From contig DATNIC010000003.1 in assembly GCA_035604635.1 (NCBI GenBank), forward strand, positions 22,028-86,027: a DNA stretch of 64,000 nt. Direction: 5' to 3'. Positions 9,229 through 63,788 of this stretch are shown in pieces (within the stretch, counting starts at the first letter, position 1; every line of letters begins with the position of its first letter). The notes under the pieces were generated by a model. It saw only the letters and a list, made by a program, of their open reading frames with translations, was not told where the DNA came from and did not search any database. This stretch comes from Candidatus Binatia bacterium (GTDB lineage: Bacteria > Vulcanimicrobiota > Vulcanimicrobiia > Vulcanimicrobiales > Vulcanimicrobiaceae). The translations under genes and the position numbers were made by a program.

Positions 9229-9998
9229 GATACGGCTTCCAATTCGCCGAGGATCTCGCGCGCCAAAGCGAGATAGGCTTGCGCGCCGCGGCTCTTGATA
9301 TCGAAGATGATCACCGGTTTACCGTACGACGGCGCTTCCGATATGCGAATGTTTCGTGGAATCTGCGTCTTGAAAACGACACGCGGAAAATAGCGGTGCA
9401 CTTCGTCGAGGACTTCGGTGGCGAGCCTCGTTCGACCGTCGAACATCGTGATCAGCACGCCTGAAATCGCCAGTCTCGGGTTGAGCGCGCCATGCACGCG
9501 TCCGATGACGGTCGTGAGTTGCGAGAGTCCTTCGAGGGCGTAAAACTCCGCCTGCACGGGGACGATCGCTTCGTCTGCGGCAGTGAGCGCATTGATCGTC
9601 AAGAGTCCGAGCGACGGCGGGCAATCGATGAGAACGAAGTCGTACTGATCGCGCACCGCTTCGAGCGCGTTCTTCAGCCGCGTCTCTCGCGAGAGCATCG
9701 AAACGAGTTCGATCTCGGCGCCGGCGAGATTTAGCGTAGCCGGAACGACGAAAAGGTTCGGAATTTCGGTCGCTTTTGTCACTTCCGCGATCGGCGCGTC
9801 TTGCAGCAAAGCCGAATAGATGCACGCCGGCAAGCCGCGCTTGTTGATCCCCAGGCCGGTCGTCGTGTTGCCTTGCGGATCGATGTCGACGACGAGCGTC
9901 TTGCGTCCAAGCGTCGCGAGTGACGCGCCCAAGTTCACGGCCGTCGTGCTCTTACCGACGCCGCCTTTTTGGTTCACGATAGCGATGACGCGACTCAA
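9225..9998 (-). CDS. parA: Chromosome partitioning ATPase ParA/Soj
   Basis: C-terminal 257 codons of ORF 9225..10730. Deviant Walker A VNQKGGVGKST. Start set at in-frame TTG (LSRVIAIVNQKGG), 10 nt after a GGAG contributed by repeat copy A. The upstream part of the ORF reads through the repeat and is rejected. Confidence 0.88.
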   Translation of the reverse strand: MSRVIAIVNQKGGVGKSTTAVNLGASLATLGRKTLVVDIDPQGNTTTGLGINKRGLPACIYSALLQDAPIAEVTKATEIPNLFVVPATLNLAGAEIELVSMLSRETRLKNALEAVRDQYDFVLIDCPPSLGLLTINALTAADEAIVPVQAEFYALEGLSQLTTVIGRVHGALNPRLAISGVLITMFDGRTRLATEVLDEVHRYFPRVVFKTQIPRNIRISEAPSYGKPVIIFDIKSRGAQAYLALAREILGELEAVS

Positions 9999-10005
9999 TT
10001 TTAAG

Positions 10006-10115
10006 GCGCTCCGCCCCAGGCTCCGCGCCCCCCATGCTTCGCATGGGGCCCCCAGACCGTCGGGCCCGTAAACATTCTCCTCACAATTCGATTCCCCGAG
10101 GGGGCCCGTAACAAC
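10006..10115 (-). repeat. Structured GC-rich intergenic repeat, copy A (immediately 5' of parA)
   Basis: Reverse complement reads GTTGTTACGGGCCCCCTCGGGGAATCG...GGGGGCCCCATGCGAAGCATGGGGGGCGCGGAGCCTGGGGCGGAGCGCC. See findings for the five other copies. Confidence 0.9.
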
Positions 10116-10188
10116 AAATCCGGTGTTCGGCCTACCGTCCGGGATGCTTTTGTTCGCGATGCGGAATATCTTTCCATAAAACGATAAA

Positions 10189-21647: not shown

Positions 21648-22727
21648 TTGCGGTTGAGGCTGCTGGGCCTCGTCGACGTGCGCAATTATGCCGAGCTGAA
21701 CATCGAGGTCCCCCCCGGGCTGGTCGTCTTTACCGGCCGGAACGCGCAGGGCAAGAGTAACCTCCTCGAAGCGATCGGGGTTCTCGCGACCGGGAAATCA
21801 TTTCGTACCGCGCATGAAGGTGAGTTGATCCGCCATGGCTCGCTGCGGGCGGTGGTCAACGGTGAAGCTGATGTTGCAGCAGGGAGCATCCATCTCGCCT
21901 GCGAGATCGCGCGCACCGCGCAAGGCACGCGCAAGACGTACCGGCTCAACGGGGAGCCGACGAAGTTTGCGCGCTACTTGGGAAGCGTTCGGGCGGTGAC
22001 GTTCACCCCTGCGGACCTGGAGCTCGTCGATGGCCCGCCCTTGCGCCGACGCGCGATGCTCAACAGCGCACTCTCGCAGAGCGATCCGAGGTACTATCGC
22101 GAGCTCGCCTTGTACACCAAGATCCTCACGCAGAAGCGCGCGCTGCTCCGCGCGTCCGAGATCGTCGATCGCGAATTGTTAACGACGTATAACGCGCAAT
22201 TAGCCGCGGCCGGCGACGCGCTCATCGCTGCGCGAGCGTCCTACGCGACGACATTCTCGAGCGCCGCGGCCGCCGCGCACCGGGCACTGGGCATAGACGG
22301 CGTGCTGCAAGTCGTCTATCGTCCCGACGTCGAGCCCGGGTCACTCGCCGCGCGGCTCGAGGAGCGCATGCCCCTCGAGATCGCGCGAAAAGCAGTGTTG
22401 GCCGGACCGCATCGTGACGACGTCGAGCTCATCCTCGACGGGGTTTCGCTTGCCGCGTTCGGCTCGCAGGGGCAAAAGCGCGGGGCCGTGCTGGCGCTCA
22501 AACTGGCTGAGTACGCGGTCTTACGCGAGCAATCGGGCGAAGCGCCCTTGCTCTTACTCGACGACGTCCTCTCGGAACTCGACGACGTGCGGCAACGCTA
22601 CTTCATCGAGAACATCGCTCCATTCGAGCAGGTCTTCCTAACAGCGACGGTCTTGCCGGACCGCCTGCACGCGCCCTCGCACGTCTACCGCATCGAGGCG
22701 GGGCGGGTGGAGCGCCTCGCGTGCTGA
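21648..22727 (+). CDS. recF: DNA replication and repair protein RecF
   Basis: ORF 359 aa starting at TTG. Walker A GRNAQGKSNLLEAI, signature SQGQKR, Walker B LLLLDDVLSELD. Confidence 0.93.
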   Translation: MRLRLLGLVDVRNYAELNIEVPPGLVVFTGRNAQGKSNLLEAIGVLATGKSFRTAHEGELIRHGSLRAVVNGEADVAAGSIHLACEIARTAQGTRKTYRLNGEPTKFARYLGSVRAVTFTPADLELVDGPPLRRRAMLNSALSQSDPRYYRELALYTKILTQKRALLRASEIVDRELLTTYNAQLAAAGDALIAARASYATTFSSAAAAAHRALGIDGVLQVVYRPDVEPGSLAARLEERMPLEIARKAVLAGPHRDDVELILDGVSLAAFGSQGQKRGAVLALKLAEYAVLREQSGEAPLLLLDDVLSELDDVRQRYFIENIAPFEQVFLTATVLPDRLHAPSHVYRIEAGRVERLAC

Positions 22728-23560: not shown

Positions 23561-23570
23561 CAAAAACCAA

Positions 23571-25580
<2,010 letters not shown>

Positions 25581-43184: not shown

Positions 43185-43729
43185 TCGTCCGTAGTCTCCT
43201 CGCCGGCGCTTTGCTAACGCTCCTCTGCGGCTGCGAGTCGACGGGTGGGGGAGGCCCTGCCCAGACCCCCGCCCCGACGCAGCCCGCGGTCCCGGTTCAC
43301 GTCGAAACCCACGGCGACGCCCTCCATCCTGCGACGTTTACCGCGAGCGAGCACAACCGGCGCGTCTACCTTGTCACGGCGAAGTCGAGCGTCGGCGACC
43401 GTCTGGGTGACGGCAGTTTCATCGTTGCGCTCTCGCAGCCGCACGTGACGTTTTTTGAACGGACCGGCAAGACGCTGATCGGCGATTCGCCGAAGGCCGT
43501 CGTCACGGAGAGGGACAAGACGATCATGATGAGCGGCGGCGTAACGGCGCGGACGCAGGATGGAGCGGTTTTGACTTGCGATACGTTGACCTACGACGGA
43601 CGGGTCGAGCGTATTCACGGTGAAGGTAACGTCGTGCTGACCAGTGCACGCGGCGACCGCTTGACCGGCGACACGATCGACGGCGACGTCCGCCTCAACC
43701 ACGTCACGGTCAATAGCAGCCCTCGATGA
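43181..43729 (+). CDS. lptC: LptC/OstA-like LPS export lipoprotein
   Basis: ORF 182 aa; ATGA overlap with the upstream stop. Lipobox LLCGC. Beta-jellyroll-like repeats (...HVTFFERTGKTLIGDSPKAVV...MSGGVTARTQDGAVLTCDTLTYD...GEGNVVLTSARGDRLTGDT). Lies upstream of lptB. Confidence 0.65.
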   Translation: MIVRSLLAGALLTLLCGCESTGGGGPAQTPAPTQPAVPVHVETHGDALHPATFTASEHNRRVYLVTAKSSVGDRLGDGSFIVALSQPHVTFFERTGKTLIGDSPKAVVTERDKTIMMSGGVTARTQDGAVLTCDTLTYDGRVERIHGEGNVVLTSARGDRLTGDTIDGDVRLNHVTVNSSPR

Positions 43730-43737
43730 AACAGTAC

Positions 43738-43899
43738 TTTAGCGCCCCCTCGGGGCATCGTGCTTTCATCGTAATGATGAGGGGCGCTACGGTCGGGGGC
43801 CCCAAAGCGAAGCTTTGGGGGGCGGAGCGAGCACGGATGCGAGCCTGTCGCACAGCACAGGATGTGCGCTGGTGCGACCGGAGGCTCGGCCGGAGCGCC
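43738..43899 (+). repeat. Structured GC-rich intergenic repeat, copy C (5' of lptB; carries a ~55-nt internal insertion)
   Basis: TTTAGCGCCCCCTCGGGGCATCG...GAGGGGCGCTA...GGGGGCCCCAAAGCGAAGCTTTGGGGGGCGGAGCG-[insertion]-GGAGGCTCGGCCGGAGCGCC, then TTTCA-ATG (lptB). Confidence 0.85.
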
Positions 43900-43904
43900 T
43901 TTCA

Positions 43905-44651
43905 ATGAACGGCAGTTCTCAGCGCATCGTTTTGCGCGATCTGGTCAAGCGCTACGGGTCACGTGTGGTCGTCAACGGGGTCAGCGCGACCGTGAACAAT
44001 GGCGAAGTCGTCGGCCTGCTCGGGCCCAACGGCGCCGGGAAGACGACGACGTTTTATATGGTCGTCGGCGTGATCCGTCCCGACGGCGGGTCGGTCGCAC
44101 TCGAGGGCGACGGCGCGCTCGTCGAGCTGACGGACCAGCCTATGCACGAACGCGCGCGCGCCGGGATCGGCTATCTCGCGCAGGAGAACTCGATCTTTCG
44201 CAAACTCTCGGTCGGTGACAATTTGCGCTTGATCTGGGAGATGAACGGCGTCTCGCACGCCGAGCAGGAGGCCCGGCTGCCGGGACTGCTCGACGAGTTC
44301 GGACTGGGCCGCTTGATCGACGCGCGCGGCGACAGCCTCTCGGGCGGCGAACGGCGGCGGGTCGAAATCGCGCGCGCGATGGCGACCGAGCCGTCCTTCC
44401 TGCTGCTCGACGAGCCGTTTACCGGGATCGATCCGATCGCCGTCGCCGACATTCAAACGATGATCCGCCAACTGCGCGAGCGCGGGCTCGGCATCCTCAT
44501 CACGGATCATCAGGTGCGCGAGACGCTCGCCATCGTCGACCGCGCCTACATCCTCAACGATGGGAAGATCGAGGTCGCGGGGACGGCGCAAGAGGTCTTG
44601 GAGAGCCCGGTCGCCCGCAAGTTCTACCTCGGCGAAGGCTTCCGGCTGTGA
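43905..44651 (+). CDS. lptB: LPS export ABC transporter ATP-binding protein LptB
   Basis: ORF 43815..44651; start at ATG 43905 (MNGSSQRIVLRDLVKRYG). Walker A GPNGAGKTT, signature LSGGERRR, Walker B LLLDEP, and the LptB-type C-terminus. Confidence 0.93.
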   Translation: MNGSSQRIVLRDLVKRYGSRVVVNGVSATVNNGEVVGLLGPNGAGKTTTFYMVVGVIRPDGGSVALEGDGALVELTDQPMHERARAGIGYLAQENSIFRKLSVGDNLRLIWEMNGVSHAEQEARLPGLLDEFGLGRLIDARGDSLSGGERRRVEIARAMATEPSFLLLDEPFTGIDPIAVADIQTMIRQLRERGLGILITDHQVRETLAIVDRAYILNDGKIEVAGTAQEVLESPVARKFYLGEGFRL

Positions 44652-49554: not shown

Positions 49555-50582
49555 AAGTCGCGCTCGACGCACAGCTCGCCGTCGGGACCGCGACCGGGAT
49601 CGGTGAATACGTGCGAGGCTTGGGACCGGCCCTGCGCGCATGCGGTATCGACGTCGAGATGTTGCAGTTGCCGTTCCTGGACCCGTGGCGTTTCGACCGG
49701 CGCGTCGTGTGGGATCAAATGCTGCTCCCGTTTGCGGCTGCGCGCGCGCGCCCGGATCTGTTGCACTGCGCGTCGGGCACGATGCCGTTCCTCCCGGCCG
49801 GCGCGCCGATCGTCGTTACCGTTCACGACGTCGCTTGGCAGCGCGTTCAGCAGCACACGCGCAGCTACGCGCGCCTGTATTTCGGCGATCTGATGGCGCG
49901 CCGTTCTCGGTCTGCGCGCGCCATCGTCACCGATTCGATCTTCTCGCGTGGCGAGCTGATCGAATTCGTCGGCGTCGATCCATCACGCGTCTTTGTTGCG
50001 TATCTGGGGGTCGATCCGAGTTTTGCGGCGGTCGTCCGCCGGCCGGACCGCGTGAATCCGACGATCCTTGCGGTCGGGACGGTCGAACGGCGCAAGGCGC
50101 TCGGCATGGCGATCGAGGCGCTCGCCGGGCTGCCCGGTGCGCGGCTCGTCAGCGTCGGCCCGACGACTGCGTACGAGCAAGAGTGCCGCGAGCGCGCCCG
50201 GAGGTTCGGAGTCAGCGACCGGGTCGATTTTCGCGGATACGTCTCGCGCGACGAGCTGCTTGCGCTCTACGCAACGACGACGCTCGCGATCGCGCCGTCG
50301 CTCTATGAAGGCTTCGGCTACGCGGCCGCGCAGGCGCTGTGCGCGGGAGTCCCGCTGCTCGCCTCGGATGCCGCTTCGCACCCGGAGATCGTTGCGAACG
50401 CCGTACCACTCGTGCCGAGCGGCGACGTCGCCGCCTGGCGCGACGCGATTGCAGCGCTCCTCGATGACATCGACGCCGCCGAAATGCGGGCCGCATCGGT
50501 CCGCACGGCCGCCGTCGCGCGCTTCACGTGGGAAGCGTGCGCCCGCGCGACGATCCCGGCTTACATGCTCGCCTTACGGTAA
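49551..50582 (+). CDS. Glycosyltransferase family 4 (GT-B)
   Basis: ORF 343 aa; GTGA overlap with the upstream stop. Motifs TGIGEYVRGL, LHCASG and E..G....EA (SLYEGFGYAAAQALCAGVPLLASD). Confidence 0.8.
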   Translation: MKVALDAQLAVGTATGIGEYVRGLGPALRACGIDVEMLQLPFLDPWRFDRRVVWDQMLLPFAAARARPDLLHCASGTMPFLPAGAPIVVTVHDVAWQRVQQHTRSYARLYFGDLMARRSRSARAIVTDSIFSRGELIEFVGVDPSRVFVAYLGVDPSFAAVVRRPDRVNPTILAVGTVERRKALGMAIEALAGLPGARLVSVGPTTAYEQECRERARRFGVSDRVDFRGYVSRDELLALYATTTLAIAPSLYEGFGYAAAQALCAGVPLLASDAASHPEIVANAVPLVPSGDVAAWRDAIAALLDDIDAAEMRAASVRTAAVARFTWEACARATIPAYMLALR

Positions 50583-50583
50583 C

Positions 50584-50694
50584 GTTGTTGAGCGCGCCCT
50601 CGGGGAATCGAACGAATGAGCAGGATGACGAGCGCGCGTGAGGTTGGGGGCCCCACGCGAAGCGTGGGGGGCGCGGAGCCTGGGGCGGAGCGCC
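50584..50694 (+). repeat. Structured GC-rich intergenic repeat, copy D (between convergent genes; no downstream + strand gene)
   Basis: GTTGTTGAGCGCGCCCTCGGGGAATCG...GGGGGCCCCACGCGAAGCGTGGGGGGCGCGGAGCCTGGGGCGGAGCGCC, then TTTTAATAAA. Confidence 0.9.
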
Positions 50695-50696
50695 TT

Positions 50697-52463
50697 TTAA
50701 TAAATAGGCGAGTTGGGTGCGCCGGGCGGCGTGCTCCCATCGTCGGGGCCGATGACGAGATTGAGCGGATACGATGAGCCGCCTTCGGGCATCGTCGTGA
50801 TTTGGACGCGCACGAAACCGTTCGCGGGGACCGTATATTGCCGCAGCATGTAGTGACCGTACGGGTTCACCGCGTGCGACTGCACGAGGACGCGGTCGAT
50901 CAAGTACGTCCCGGTCGCGCGGCCGCCGCGCGGATTCTCATAGATGGCGATCGGGACGGGATGGCCGTAGCGGTTAACGATCGTCACCGTGATCGACTGC
51001 ATCACGCCGTAGTCGCCGGCAAGCGCCTCGCCCTCAAGCATGTTCGGAAGCTTGAGCGAGCCGATTTGGATCTCGAGCGGATCCTGGCTCGTGTCGTAGG
51101 TGTAATCGAAGAAGAACTCGGGAACCGGATAGATCCCGCGCGCGTGCTTCACCTCACTGCTTAAGAGCGCAGCGCTCTGCGAGACGGCCGTGTCGAGCGG
51201 ATCGTTCGCGTCCTGCGCGATCAAGGATAAGTGCAGCGTATTGCCGGTCATCTCGCGCAGCTGCAGAATCGCGCTCGAGATCGAACCGGCCGGGAGCGGA
51301 TGATTCACTAGATTGATCGTCGAGTTCGGCGGGATCGTCACGACCGTCCCTTCGTTCTGCAATTCACGGACCAGGAAGCGACGTGTCGAGAGGTGTCCGA
51401 CCTCCATCTCGTTTTCTTCCGGTCCGGCGGAACCGGTGATGAATTGCACGACCGCGGCTTGGGGTGAAGGGTTCTCGACCTTGAGCAAGATCCGCCGATT
51501 CGGCTGTCCGCGCGGATTGTAGTGGTAGTAAAGGAAGCGCTGTGCCATGTCGCGGCCCAGATCGGCGGCGAACAGCAGCCCGTTCTCGCGCAAGGTCTCG
51601 GGGAAGTCGCTGACCAGCAATTGCGACGGCGAGATACGGGGGAGCGCGAAGTTCTCGATCGAGACGTGCGTCGTCCCCTGGACGGTAATGTAGTCCGGTC
51701 CCTGTATCGAGACGGGAACGTCGACGCTGCGGAGGTTGTCTTGCCCGAGGTCGGTTCGAACGTTGATCGCTTGGGAATTGATCACGACGTTCGCGCCGGG
51801 GCGGGGCCGCGCCGCAGAGCTGACCGCGTCGGCGACGACCGACCGCACGAACGCTGCGGTCGCCGGATTCCCCGTGAGCCGCACGGAGGCAGAGGGTGCG
51901 ATCGAGCCCGCGAGCAGGGCCACGCGCATCCCGACCTCGGCACTGACGCCGCGGTCGTCGGTGACGTGGATCGTCGTGACGCCTAGATTCTTCCCGGAGA
52001 CGACGATCGTCCGCGCGACCTGATCGATCCGCACATCCACGACGTTGGCATCGATCGGGACGGCGGTGATGGTCCCTACCGCCCGATCGACGCGCAAAGT
52101 GATCGTCGTCCCGAGCACGATCGACGCGTTGTTCGGGGTGACGAAGATCGGCGGCGGGGCCGGCGTTGCGGACGGTCCCGTCCCCGGGACGCACGGGACC
52201 GGCGTTGAGAACGGCCCGGGGGTTCCAATCGGGACAAGCGTCGGACAGGGCGACGGCGTCTCACCGGTCTCGGCTCCGGGAGCCGGTGCGGCGGCGCTGG
52301 ATTCCGGAGCCGGGAGCGGGGGCGCGGGGACGGGGGCATTGATCGCGCCGGGTGGCGGCGTGACCGATGCGTTGACGGGGACGGGCTGCGCGTCGAGCGC
52401 ACGCGTCCAAACCAATATGCATGCAAGGATAGCGCACGTAGCCAGACCCGTGCGCAAAGTCAC
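50697..52463 (-). CDS. Secreted protein of unknown function (Pro-rich linker, pilus-N/BON-like beta domain, large uncharacterised C-terminal domain)
   Basis: ORF 588 aa starting at GTG. Signal peptide MTLRTGLATCAILACILVWTRALDA. Pro-rich segment of about 90 aa. IVLGTTITLRVDRAVGTITAVPIDANVVDVRIDQVARTIVVSGKNLGVTTIHVTDDRG resembles the pilus-formation N-terminal fold. I do not recognise the remaining ~380 aa. Confidence 0.6.
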   Translation of the reverse strand: MTLRTGLATCAILACILVWTRALDAQPVPVNASVTPPPGAINAPVPAPPLPAPESSAAAPAPGAETGETPSPCPTLVPIGTPGPFSTPVPCVPGTGPSATPAPPPIFVTPNNASIVLGTTITLRVDRAVGTITAVPIDANVVDVRIDQVARTIVVSGKNLGVTTIHVTDDRGVSAEVGMRVALLAGSIAPSASVRLTGNPATAAFVRSVVADAVSSAARPRPGANVVINSQAINVRTDLGQDNLRSVDVPVSIQGPDYITVQGTTHVSIENFALPRISPSQLLVSDFPETLRENGLLFAADLGRDMAQRFLYYHYNPRGQPNRRILLKVENPSPQAAVVQFITGSAGPEENEMEVGHLSTRRFLVRELQNEGTVVTIPPNSTINLVNHPLPAGSISSAILQLREMTGNTLHLSLIAQDANDPLDTAVSQSAALLSSEVKHARGIYPVPEFFFDYTYDTSQDPLEIQIGSLKLPNMLEGEALAGDYGVMQSITVTIVNRYGHPVPIAIYENPRGGRATGTYLIDRVLVQSHAVNPYGHYMLRQYTVPANGFVRVQITTMPEGGSSYPLNLVIGPDDGSTPPGAPNSPIY

Positions 52464-55873: not shown

Positions 55874-55986
55874 ATGTTGTTACGAGCCCCCTCGGGGCAT
55901 GTCTACCTCATCGAAACGATGAGGGGCTCGCAGGTTTGGGGGCCCCACGCAAAGCGTGGGGGGCGCGGAGCCTGGGGCGGAGCGCC
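55874..55986 (+). repeat. Structured GC-rich intergenic repeat, copy E (between dnaX and ybaB)
   Basis: ATGTTGTTACGAGCCCCCTCGGGGCATG...GAGGGGCTCG...GGGGGCCCCACGCAAAGCGTGGGGGGCGCGGAGCCTGGGGCGGAGCGCC, then GTCAGA-ATG (ybaB). Preceded by AGGAGCACCT. Confidence 0.9.
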
Positions 55987-55992
55987 GTCAGA

Positions 55993-56298
55993 ATGAATCA
56001 AGCCCAGATGATGGCGCAGCTGCGCAAGATGCAAGAGGCGATGACGAAGGCGCAGGATGAGCTCGCCAATACCGTCGTGGCCGGGAATGCGTCGGCAGAT
56101 TTGGTCCAAGTCGAGATGACCGGCGATTTTCGCGTGAAGTCGGTCAAGATCGGCAAGGACGCCGTCGACCCGGAGGACGTCGAGACGCTGGAAGATCTGC
56201 TCGTCGTCGCATTCAACGACGCGCTCGCGAAAGTACAAGAACTCTCGAGCAAGAAGCTCGGTGGGATCACGGGCGGGCTGAAGATACCCGGGATGTGA
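55993..56298 (+). CDS. ybaB: Nucleoid-associated protein YbaB/EbfC
   Basis: ORF 55936..56298; start at ATG 55993 (MNQAQMMAQLRKMQEAMTKAQDEL...). Typical ~100-aa YbaB between dnaX and recR. Confidence 0.92.
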   Translation: MNQAQMMAQLRKMQEAMTKAQDELANTVVAGNASADLVQVEMTGDFRVKSVKIGKDAVDPEDVETLEDLLVVAFNDALAKVQELSSKKLGGITGGLKIPGM

Positions 56299-63258: not shown

Positions 63259-63708
63259 ATGTTCGATTTTCTGTCCCGGTTCTTCAAACCCCAGGGCTCG
63301 AGCGAGACTGCGAAGGAGCGCTTGCGCCTCGTGTTGCTCTCCGATCATTTGCAGCTTGCACCCGACGTCGTCGAGGCACTCAAGTACGATTTGATCGCGG
63401 TGATCTCCAAGTACGTCGAGGTCGACGTCGAGAGCTGCGAGGTGACGTTCGAACAGCAGGACCGCACCGTCCTGATGCTCGCGAACATCCCGATCGTCTC
63501 GATGAAGGTGCGGACGCTTGACCAGCCGGCCGAGCCCGAACCGATCGTCCTCGGCGAGCCCGAACTCGAGGTTCAGCCGGCGACCGTAACGTCACACGCC
63601 CATGCCGCAGCACCACGCCGCCGCCGCCGCCGGCGCAAGAGGTTGGGCGCTGGATCCGATAATAAGCAACATGCTGTTACGGGCCCCCTCGGGGAATCGT
63701 CAAACTAG
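63259..63708 (+). CDS. minE: Cell division topological specificity factor MinE with ~60-aa C-terminal extension
   Basis: ORF 149 aa; GGAGGG 10 nt upstream. MinE core MFDFLSRFFKP...AKERLRLVLLSDH...VISKYVEV. Tail contains RRRRRRRKR. The last 12 codons and the stop lie inside repeat copy F. Confidence 0.88.
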   Translation: MFDFLSRFFKPQGSSETAKERLRLVLLSDHLQLAPDVVEALKYDLIAVISKYVEVDVESCEVTFEQQDRTVLMLANIPIVSMKVRTLDQPAEPEPIVLGEPELEVQPATVTSHAHAAAPRRRRRRRKRLGAGSDNKQHAVTGPLGESSN

Positions 63709-63783
63709 CTCGACGCTGAGGGGCCCGAAAGTCGGGGGGCCCCACGCGAAGCGTGGGGGGCGCGGAGCCTGGGGCGTAGCGCC
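63671..63783 (+). repeat. Structured GC-rich repeat, copy F (overlaps the minE 3' end, immediately 5' of rodA)
   Basis: ATGCTGTTACGGGCCCCCTCGGGGAATCG...GAGGGGCCCG...GGGGGGCCCCACGCGAAGCGTGGGGGGCGCGGAGCCTGGGGCGTAGCGCC, then TTAAA-ATG (rodA). Confidence 0.9.
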
Positions 63784-63788
63784 TTAAA

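Follow-up and report, generated by a model that had tools for sequence, protein, structure and literature searches.

The DNA analysed here (the window) is a stretch of 64,000 nucleotides, positions 22,028 to 86,027 of contig DATNIC010000003.1, from an assembly named Candidatus Binatia bacterium (GCA_035604635.1) that GTDB places in the Vulcanimicrobiaceae. Six of its gene junctions are occupied by copies, A to F, of a short GC-rich element (Table 1). The copy that was flagged initially, copy E, lies between dnaX and ybaB. The junctions concerned belong to housekeeping operons, and the flanking genes (parA, gyrB, lptB, ybaB and rodA) have no other common feature. The element is a real, previously unnamed repeat family, with three hairpins (H1, H2 and H3) and an open frame that runs through them.

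The initial annotation, made by eye, had counted six copies in the window, and all of them are present at or within a few bases of the positions it gave. A covariance model of the 3' half of the element, R1, built from 107 copies, was run unfiltered and matches exactly the same six (25.5–88.9 bits; next best 11.9). Likewise, core patterns of 28 nt and 24 nt match the window 5 and 6 times, with 0.00 and 0.01 matches expected from dinucleotide shuffles. This corresponds to 94 copies per Mb of window, whose G+C content averages about 65%. The length of about 110 nt proposed at first falls short at the ends: the element (about 115 nt) reaches 6 nt further at the 3' side, through a tail of sequence KTTARA, and extends at the 5' side to an ATG or TTG triplet. 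Comparison with Rfam (release 15) had been recommended, and the whole window gave no match at gathering thresholds; when two copies were searched at E ≤ 10, only chance hairpins appeared, the best being ClpQY_promoter at 15–20 bits against a threshold of 42. The element matches no Rfam family; the initial annotation had likewise not recognised it as a named RNA family. A full-text literature search for its 20-nt core string returned no paper, and one on Eremiobacterota plus repeat returned nothing relevant.

From 5' to 3', the element consists of a triplet (usually ATG), H1, a run of G, H2, H3 and the tail K-T-T-A-R-A, which is conserved in every genomic context. H2 has the form CCCCNNGC-GAA/AAA-GCNNGGGG, or is a 9-bp variant. 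H3 is composed of GGCGC, a 3 × 3 internal loop (GNA/GNA), an inner stem of 2–4 bp with a small loop, and GCGCC; its internal loop contains a GGAG resembling a Shine-Dalgarno (SD) sequence in 81–82% of copies, whichever their orientation. The insertion of about 55 nt noted early on in copy C is also present, and forms an extra hairpin in the H3 loop (window 43821–43890). H1 occurs in three forms. T1, the type found in the window, is a GTTGTTAC-stem, a CCC-UCG-GGG mini-hairpin, a hypervariable loop and a ATGATGATG-stem; the loop had been described as constant at 24 nt, but it averages about 25 nt and its length is not strictly fixed. T2 reads ATGGTGATG-GASCGAGCG ... GTTGTTGCGAGSTCGG, and T3 has the arms of T2 in reversed order, such that both form an identical helix with tandem G.A/A.G mismatches whose connectivity is circularly permuted.

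The distribution of the family was surveyed by a pattern scan of one genome per GTDB species, in which the pattern fixed only the outer part of H2. At least 103 stretches matched, almost all in metagenome-assembled genomes (MAGs) named Vulcanimicrobiota, Eremiobacterota or WPS-2; among the matches listed, the carriers are named Elarobacter, Lustribacter, Velthaea, Vulcanimicrobiaceae and, once, Baltobacteraceae. A match in Phycisphaerales proved to be a G/C run and was rejected, and one in Streptomyces is weak (27 bits). More than 120 copies are analysed below; they come from about 30 MAGs of Eremiobacterota (WPS-2), and the one complete chromosome among the carriers contributes five. With R1, 115 copies are detected in 100 of the listed loci (700 kb in total; individual loci are given as L and a number), and a single copy in 691 kb made up of 80 metagenome loci around ybaB homologues (57–87% identity). 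Because the matched stretches are nearly all from Eremiobacterota, yet the ybaB relatives yield only one copy, we conclude that the family occurs in only part of the phylum, with a patchy distribution even between close relatives. True copies also occur on contigs binned outside the phylum, namely L015 (CAVUZI010000008.1, Acidimicrobiaceae, 2 copies) and L038 (JAFAHG010000213.1, Actinomycetota), which are either mis-binned Eremiobacterota contigs or cases of inter-phylum transfer.

Compensatory changes in H1 and H2 had been proposed from the window copies, and these are real and hold well beyond them. Pairing in H2 and H3 was scored over 107 distinct copies; the outer pairs of H2 are fixed by the search pattern and carry no weight, such that only the inner three H2 pairs and H3 are free of ascertainment. 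Of 1702 cells, 99.2% are paired, compared with 95.5% in shuffles, and pairing falls to 40–66% in controls in which the arms were slid. Double changes affect six pairs and 51 cells, and the observed covariation was reached by none of 500 shuffles. The three inner pairs of H2 occur as AU68/GU33/GC3, CG87/UA19/AU1 and GC95/CG7/AU4, and the inner stem of H3, a hairpin not named in the initial annotation, also shows compensatory variation. For H1 of T1, in which the MAFFT alignment places stem sub-types one column apart, complementary arms were counted directly. At least 10 stem variants are found, each with its complement (CGAGCCC/GGGCTCG, CGCGCGC/GCGCGCG, CGGGCCC/GGGCCCG, AGGGCCC/GGGCCCT and others), including all three variants that had been quoted from the window, and 47 of 55 copies have at least 7 contiguous pairs. 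In H1 of T2, columns 12–58 pair without exception, as C-G (27 copies) or G-C (20), and columns 18–52 are G-U in 37 and A-U in 8. Folding z-scores of single copies are weak (−0.7 to −3.0), and thermodynamics alone would not suffice to flag the element.

The element is not randomly intergenic. Gene context was taken from our own codon-bias gene calls (greedy calling of whole open reading frames, ORFs), and among about 117 classified copies, 71 have a gene of their own orientation on either side, 9 follow such a gene and face a convergent one, as copy D does, 7 separate divergent genes and precede the co-oriented one, and 21 are antisense between two genes. The downstream gene was called on the opposite strand for 31 copies, which fall to about 20 (roughly 18% of the total) once strand-call errors are removed; with mis-called strands corrected, about 80% of copies lie in gene orientation. 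All five window copies that precede a gene are in the sense orientation. Typically the element occupies the entire intergenic gap. Of 85 co-oriented copies, 38 have the first in-frame downstream start, mostly ATG, exactly 6 nt beyond GCGCC, and 52 have it 5–9 nt beyond; upstream genes end most often right at the 5' triplet, frequently in TAATG or TGATG overlaps. The element is thus docked between genes, mostly sense, at a fixed 6-nt distance from the next start.

Comparison with related genomes reveals junctions with and without the element. L108 is collinear with the window from 45.8 to 64 kb at 75–80% identity and contains no R1 match, and the alignment breaks exactly at copies D, E and F. 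At the site of D, L108 is truly empty, with the stop codons of the convergent genes overlapping (TCAATAA). The ancestral dnaX/ybaB junction, as seen in about 75 relatives, reads ...GGAG-N6-ATGA..., the dnaX stop overlapping the ybaB start. In the window, the ancestral SD and its spacing (AAGGAG-CACCT-ATG) now precede the 5' ATG of copy E, and the tail is followed by the ATG of ybaB. At this junction L108 and L107, the closest relatives, which are otherwise without the element, have kept a relic of 53 nt with ATGA on both sides (L108:9957-10000, L107:644-687; ATGA-GGTCATGGAATTCCGGTTCGAGGCCGGG...GTTAGGAGCGCCGTAGA-ATGA). The 5' start, one arm of H1 and the 3' end remain in the relic, and it has lost H2 and most of H3. 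At the same junction, L118 carries a complete, divergent copy, whose H2 is CCCCGAC-AUC-GUCGGGG. Eleven further filled/empty junction pairs are found among the loci. Copy C and the copy at L069 take the place of ancestral ATGA overlaps and have ATGA on both sides. The initial annotation saw no target duplications; we agree that there is no general one, but ATGA...ATGA flanks are found at these two sites and the relic, where stop and start overlapped in ATGA ancestrally.

Copies also become joined to their neighbours. At L043, L012 and L069 the upstream gene has lost its stop codon, and its frame continues across the entire element as far as the TAA of the tail or ATGA; together with minE at copy F, such read-in gives C-terminal tails of 13–45 residues encoded by the element. 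In the case of L022, where the copy is antisense, the start of the downstream gene seems to lie within the element, and L083 is a possible second case of a new N-terminus. No copies were seen inserted inside genes, and most constitute a separate mini-cistron. Taken together, the empty sites, the relic and the read-through fusions in related genomes point to both gain and loss of copies.

Among sense copies, 43 of 74 have ATG as the 5' triplet, compared with 5 of 23 antisense or convergent ones (T1 alone, 23/41 and 0/11). Of 56 sense copies adjacent to a start codon, 41 can be read from this triplet to the 3' end without a stop, the other two frames being open in 13 and 38; at least 5 of the frames scored as closed reflect one-base registration errors of the anchoring. 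The resulting mini-ORF has 37–40 codons, with its stop overlapping or adjoining the downstream start codon; the stop lies most often at +2 from the hairpin end (TAA in the tail, 18 copies), at +7 (TGA overlapping ATG, 11) or at +1 (5). In copy C the frame is open from ATGA to ATGA despite the inserted hairpin. Selection on this frame is suggested by the hypervariable loop of H1, in which only 2 of 55 copies have a frame-0 stop; 16.6 were expected from shuffles within the loop, of which none in 300 was as low. The depletion holds separately for T1 (2 vs 9.8, P = 0.001) and T2 (0 vs 6.7, P < 0.001), all loop sequences being distinct. Stops in frames +1 and +2 (17 and 12) are as chance predicts, and among antisense copies frame-0 stops are not significantly reduced (4 of 23, 6.4 expected).

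The element's top strand folds better than its complement in 94 of 102 copies (mean −54.8 vs −49.1 kcal/mol, Wilcoxon p = 2e-17). The recurrent G-U pairs, which are A.C mismatches on the other strand, are consistent with this stronger top-strand fold. Antisense copies share the asymmetry: their top strand reaches −58.8 kcal/mol, compared with −55.8 for sense copies and −52.3 for their own bottom strand, which is the strand carried by the mRNA of the surrounding genes. The GGAG of H3 is equally conserved in the two orientations. Because antisense copies keep both the top-strand fold and the GGAG, the fold appears to be a property of the element and not something kept by the host message. For the same reason, we do not favour the free-standing structured RNA gene or motif that the initial annotation implied. 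The simplest inference is that a single-stranded form of the top strand, whether DNA or RNA, is needed for propagation, and the fold is most likely recognised in such an intermediate during spread, as opposed to being used in host mRNA. A near-invariant H2-H3 beside interchangeable H1 modules would fit a recognition module.

Table 1. Copies of the element in the window, with positions of their parts, neighbouring genes and open frames.
Copy	Extent	Strand	Junction	5' end	H1	H2	H3	Tail	Open frame
A	9999..10117	-	cca-like nucleotidyltransferase gene / parA	TTG 10117-10115	10111-10061	10053-10029	10030-10005	TTAAAA 10004-9999	10117 to 10001, 38 codons; stop TAA 2 nt before parA TTG start at 9998
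B	23567..23684	+	dciA / gyrB (ATG 23685)	degenerate, no ATG	23573-23622	23630-23654	23653-23678	ACAAAA 23679-23684	open across element; single ATG at 23623; TGA stop overlaps gyrB ATG (ATGA)
C	43726..43908	+	lptC-like gene / lptB-like ABC ATPase gene	ATG overlapping lptC stop (ATGA)	43738-43787	43795-43820	43819-43899, incl. ~55-nt hairpin insertion in loop	43900-43904	43726-43908; TGA overlaps lptB ATG at 43905 (ATGA)
D	50582..50700	+	convergent genes: GT4 glycosyltransferase ending 50582 / minus-strand gene ending 50697	no ATG	50588-50638	50646-50670	50669-50694	TTTTAA 50695-50700, overlapping stop codon of minus-strand gene	stops in frame; orthologous L108 site empty
E (flagged copy)	55874..55996	+	dnaX / ybaB (ATG 55993)	ATG 55874, 6 nt after SD AAGGAG; position of ancestral ybaB start	55880-55930	55938-55962	55961-55986	GTCAGA 55987-55992	55874-55996, 40 codons; TGA stop overlaps ybaB ATG
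F	63671..63788	+	minE / rodA/ftsW-family gene (ATG 63789)	ATG 63671	63677-63727	63735-63759	63758-63783	TTAAA 63784-63788	63671-63787, 38 codons; stop TAA 1 nt before downstream ATG
minE into F	63259-63708	+	minE						other frame than the mini-ORF; 13 codons into H1; stop 63706-63708

Several features lie beside those described above. The window from 8383 to 30773 is a replication-origin neighbourhood, in which mnmG-rsmG-cca-parA-parB run on the minus strand, as copy A does, and dnaA-dnaN-recF-dciA-gyrB-tamB on the plus strand, like copies B to F. The orientation of the element thus changes together with both gene direction and presumed replication direction, which are inseparable here. The window stems from a peat metagenome, and its gyrB is found unchanged on three JGI contigs. 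At the site of copy F, L108 (17900-17990) carries between minE and rodA a hairpin unrelated to the element (GAGCTAC-GCCGAAA-GTAGCTC), with GGAGGAGG and a GTG start after it; this may be a different intercistronic element. T3 is found at L014, L033, L048, L078 and L095, compared with about 45 copies of T2 (e.g. L067:1655-1724), and each arm of H1 in T2 and T3 keeps its own conserved 5' single-stranded motif (ATGGTGATG or GTTGTT) in either order. The 3' half of H3, GGCGGAGCGCC, resembles the 5' arm of T2 H1, GGAGCGAGCGC (e.g. L067), a likeness that hints at an origin of the modules by internal duplication. It also means that long ‘autonomous’ versions, with widely separated H1 arms, could not be told apart by motif, as the arm motif matches H3 too. 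Finally, the last 15–25 nt or so (..GAGCGCC-TTTAAA) are partly duplicated in tandem directly after a full copy at L008:6195-6300, L023, L031:5728-5810, L053, L077 and L102:7613-7700; these may be footprints of repeated insertion or of slippage.

How could a stable structure be tolerated directly before a start codon? The observed geometry is an SD and ATG, a structured ORF containing GGAG, and a stop followed by the ATG of the gene. Where ancestral empty sites allow a comparison, the 5' ATG of the element stands at the original ribosome-binding position of the gene. We propose that it takes over this position, and that ribosomes would start there or arrive from an upstream gene that reads in. 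They would then translate the frame of 37–40 codons through H1 to H3, melting the hairpins, and come to a stop either at the TAA of the AT-rich tail or at a TGA that overlaps the real ATG, 0–5 nt from the native start and downstream of the SD-like GGAG of H3. Re-initiation on the displaced native start codon would follow, by coupling of the kind believed to operate at natural overlapping pairs such as the ancestral dnaX/ybaB. With coupled re-initiation, insertion would barely disturb operon expression, and this would explain why the element survives at this exact position and orientation in a compact genome with many overlapping neighbours. The reading we favour, with moderate confidence, is accordingly of a lineage-restricted, non-autonomous Eremiobacterota repeat, similar to the MIRUs of mycobacteria, that is gained and lost at gene junctions and tolerated through translational coupling.

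A number of points weigh against this account. The antisense copies fall outside the coupling model, as do some copies that lie upstream of a separate native SD (L024, L027), and coupling is therefore not the whole story. The open frame over the whole element is not significantly more frequent in sense (41/56) than in antisense copies (13/23; P = 0.19), and roughly 10–15 of the 56 sense copies, copy B among them, have a premature stop or no start codon. Translation of the mini-ORF is deduced from its sequence, and our use of ‘mobile’ from the presence and absence of copies, with no transposase or reverse transcriptase linked to the element. Among 50 copies without ATG, the left-flank 3-mer recurs at no preferred right-hand offset (0–2 observed, 0.1–1.9 expected), and left flanks share only a terminal (A)YG, with no conserved target. 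By eye, the type 1 ends have 7 of 11 bases in common (5' TGTTACGGGCC and the reverse complement of the 3' end, TTTAACGGCGC), a doubtful terminal inverted repeat, with nothing comparable in type 2. Our gene calls are home-made and several strand calls were wrong. Lastly, a 3' module that is nearly invariant across genera could equally mean a host function.

This last point leads to the alternative that H2-H3 is a cis-acting RNA module serving the host as operon ‘punctuation’, for instance as the site of a global RNA-binding protein or RNase, a REP-like stabiliser of mRNA or a tuner of initiation, and conserved because the cell uses it. We consider this unlikely, although it accounts for a 3' part that hardly changes across genera while the flanking genes diverge, for the fixed start-codon spacing and sense bias, and for the frequency of the SD-like GGAG. 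The G.A-rich internal loops (GNA/GNA in H3, tandem GA in T2 H1) look like protein-binding motifs, and copies persist at one junction in different genomes with compensatory differences (copy E and L118). Set against this, antisense copies keep the fold and its G-U asymmetry on a strand absent from the local mRNA, and conserve the GGAG no less well than sense copies. Close relatives do without the element at the same junctions, including those of housekeeping operons, and the genes that it would serve are unalike. A stable hairpin ending 6 nt before an ATG should, moreover, hinder direct initiation. A further reading, in which H2-H3 is no tolerated cargo but an active, portable device for re-initiation or ribosome handover, whose fold, with GGAG and AU-rich tail, holds or positions the terminating ribosome on the next start, seems to us improbable. 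The element would then be a modular ‘bicistronic adaptor’ across Eremiobacterota operons, spread via a strand-specific single-stranded intermediate by an enzyme not recognised as a transposase, and its 3' module, common to copies whose 5' heads are interchangeable or permuted, would recall the tail shared by SINEs and LINEs. Smaller still is the chance that the frames encode functional proteins of 37–40 residues (MLLRAPSGN... or MVMDRAQQ...). An open frame after a start codon and SD, with stops avoided, would be expected of such proteins, but among copies the C-terminal half is read in three different frames, one of them ...GGPTRSVGGAEPGAERR, the residues encoded by the loop are hypervariable, and compensatory stem changes alter residues, as in copy A, where H2 changes R to H. 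The peptides have no Pfam match. A mini-ORF peptide matched only 2 proteins in a protein database, which is no census because gene callers skip such ORFs. Common peptide N-termini follow from the structural conservation of the underlying DNA. Given the varying C-terminal frames, the residue changes that accompany stem compensation and the lack of a Pfam match, it appears that the act of translation is under selection and not the peptide.

The mode of movement offers a further alternative, namely that the element is non-autonomous and an HUH/Y1 enzyme mobilises it as single-stranded DNA, as with IS200/IS605 PATEs or REP/RAYT, with the top-strand hairpins as recognition sites. Orientation bias would then stem from replication direction and the association with start codons only from purifying selection. 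This is compatible with the coupling ORF and competes mainly over the purpose of the fold and the way the element moves. We regard it as rather unlikely, placing it between the host module and the re-initiation device. It agrees with the finding, in line with the initial annotation, of no clear terminal inverted repeats, with the lack of a general target duplication, with a strand-specific fold kept in either gene orientation, with the flip in orientation across the dnaA/parAB origin region, with the partial tandem duplications of the 3' end and with sub-families enriched within individual genomes. However, the left and right hairpins are unalike, whereas IS200/IS605 ends share a hairpin, and no conserved target of 4–5 nt lies 5' of the element apart from ATG. 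As the initial annotation also stated, there is no transposase nearby, and no Y1 or RAYT gene turned up, no screen for one having been made. Replication and gene direction are confounded in every case examined, and the element is unlike REPs as PMC3733652 describes them (20–40 nt with a GTAG/CGTC head). A small catalytic or autonomous RNA such as a self-cleaving ribozyme has the least to recommend it and is barely conceivable. The idea comes from the circularly permuted connectivity of H1, reminiscent of hammerhead and twister, with arms permuted between T2 and T1/T3 while the tandem G.A helix is kept, and single-stranded segments next to helices are conserved. But the permutation affects only H1, no Rfam ribozyme family matched even at E ≤ 10, no conserved candidate cleavage site is apparent, and the open frame and docking geometry are left unexplained.

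The MIRU-like reading draws on close parallels with the mycobacterial elements. According to PMC12548453, MIRUs (Supply et al., 1997) ‘insert themselves at start codons’ and carry a coupled ORF at −4 spacing. Delihas (2011; PMC3184786) describes them as lying in operons and being transcribed polycistronically, with filled as well as empty sites, direct repeats of four nucleotides, internal inverted repeats rich in GC and ORFs overlapping the neighbours. As far as these accounts go, both are short GC-rich repeats within operons, co-oriented with the genes, apparently mobile, at start codons and with no known transposase. In both, a small ORF overlaps or abuts the stop and start of its neighbours (−4, ATGA) with coupling kept; internal GC-rich inverted repeats recur, relatives differ in which sites are filled, and some sites show apparent direct repeats of four nucleotides. 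Our element lies co-oriented between cistrons with an internal, abutting ORF; direct repeats (ATGA...ATGA) are seen at copy C, L069 and the L108 relic, and at none of the copies without a 5' ATG. The differences are also clear. The phylum is another one, and the sequence, as far as can be told, differs as well. MIRUs are given in those sources as 40–100 bp, compared with about 115 nt here, and as forming tandem VNTR arrays; our copies are single, with two adjacent copies only at L092 and partial 3' duplications. The three-hairpin covarying fold, the invariant 3' module, the alternative or permuted 5' modules, the antisense fraction and the frequent termination 1 nt before ATG (TAA-A-ATG) besides ATGA further distinguish the present element.

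Other repeat classes share some of these features. Rickettsia palindromic elements (RPEs; Ogata et al., 2000, cited in PMC3184786) are palindromic, 100–150 nt long and have an open frame that can be translated within host proteins. The read-through tails and new N-termini described above are comparable behaviour, but RPEs are described as lying inside coding regions and in mature proteins, whereas this element sits at gene boundaries as its own mini-cistron, and the two are unrelated in sequence or host. REP/BIME sequences and RAYT-associated REPINs are likewise abundant, intergenic GC-rich hairpins, often in operons, strand-specific and without terminal inverted repeats or target-site duplications. 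REPs are, however, single palindromes of 20–40 nt, usually downstream of stop codons, not docked at starts and without an ORF; with its greater length, three different hairpins and no GTAG/CGTC head, our element is not a member. Neisseria REP2 (Morelle et al., 2003, as described in PMC3184786) stands directly upstream of ORFs, has two internal stem-loops and supplies a ribosome-binding site and ATG. In contrast to the element studied here, which leaves the native ATG in place and supplies an upstream coupled ORF, it carries a promoter and fuses its own ATG to the gene. IS200/IS605 PATEs also lack terminal inverted repeats and target duplications, have hairpins near both ends and are strand-asymmetric; here H1 and H3 are unalike, no tetra- or pentanucleotide target is conserved on the 5' side and no TnpA partner came to light, and membership was rejected. 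A target-site duplication of fixed length, as expected of a MITE, is absent from the 50 copies without ATG. By analogy, the element is best described as a MIRU-like, junction-docking, translationally coupled element that would form a new sequence family.

To our knowledge, MIRU-type elements have been described only for mycobacteria, and their movement and tolerance have been conjectural since 1997. The present family would be a second, independent one, in a barely cultured phylum and with many diverged copies, sub-families, relics and empty sites. With it, the idea of coupling gains a statistical footprint in the frame-specific avoidance of stops in a hypervariable loop. The copies mark lineages, and they also distort gene calling in Eremiobacterota MAGs, in which starts are misplaced, C-terminal extensions, spurious or real, are annotated and mini-ORFs are missed; in the case of ybaB, for example, the longest ORF starts at 55936, inside copy E. 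In synthetic biology, ‘bicistronic design’ insulates translation from RNA structure, and the architecture of the element would be its natural counterpart. The family may thus interest researchers of both mobile elements and translation, as a clean comparative system in which to ask which enzyme targets gene junctions and whether translation neutralises a structured insert.

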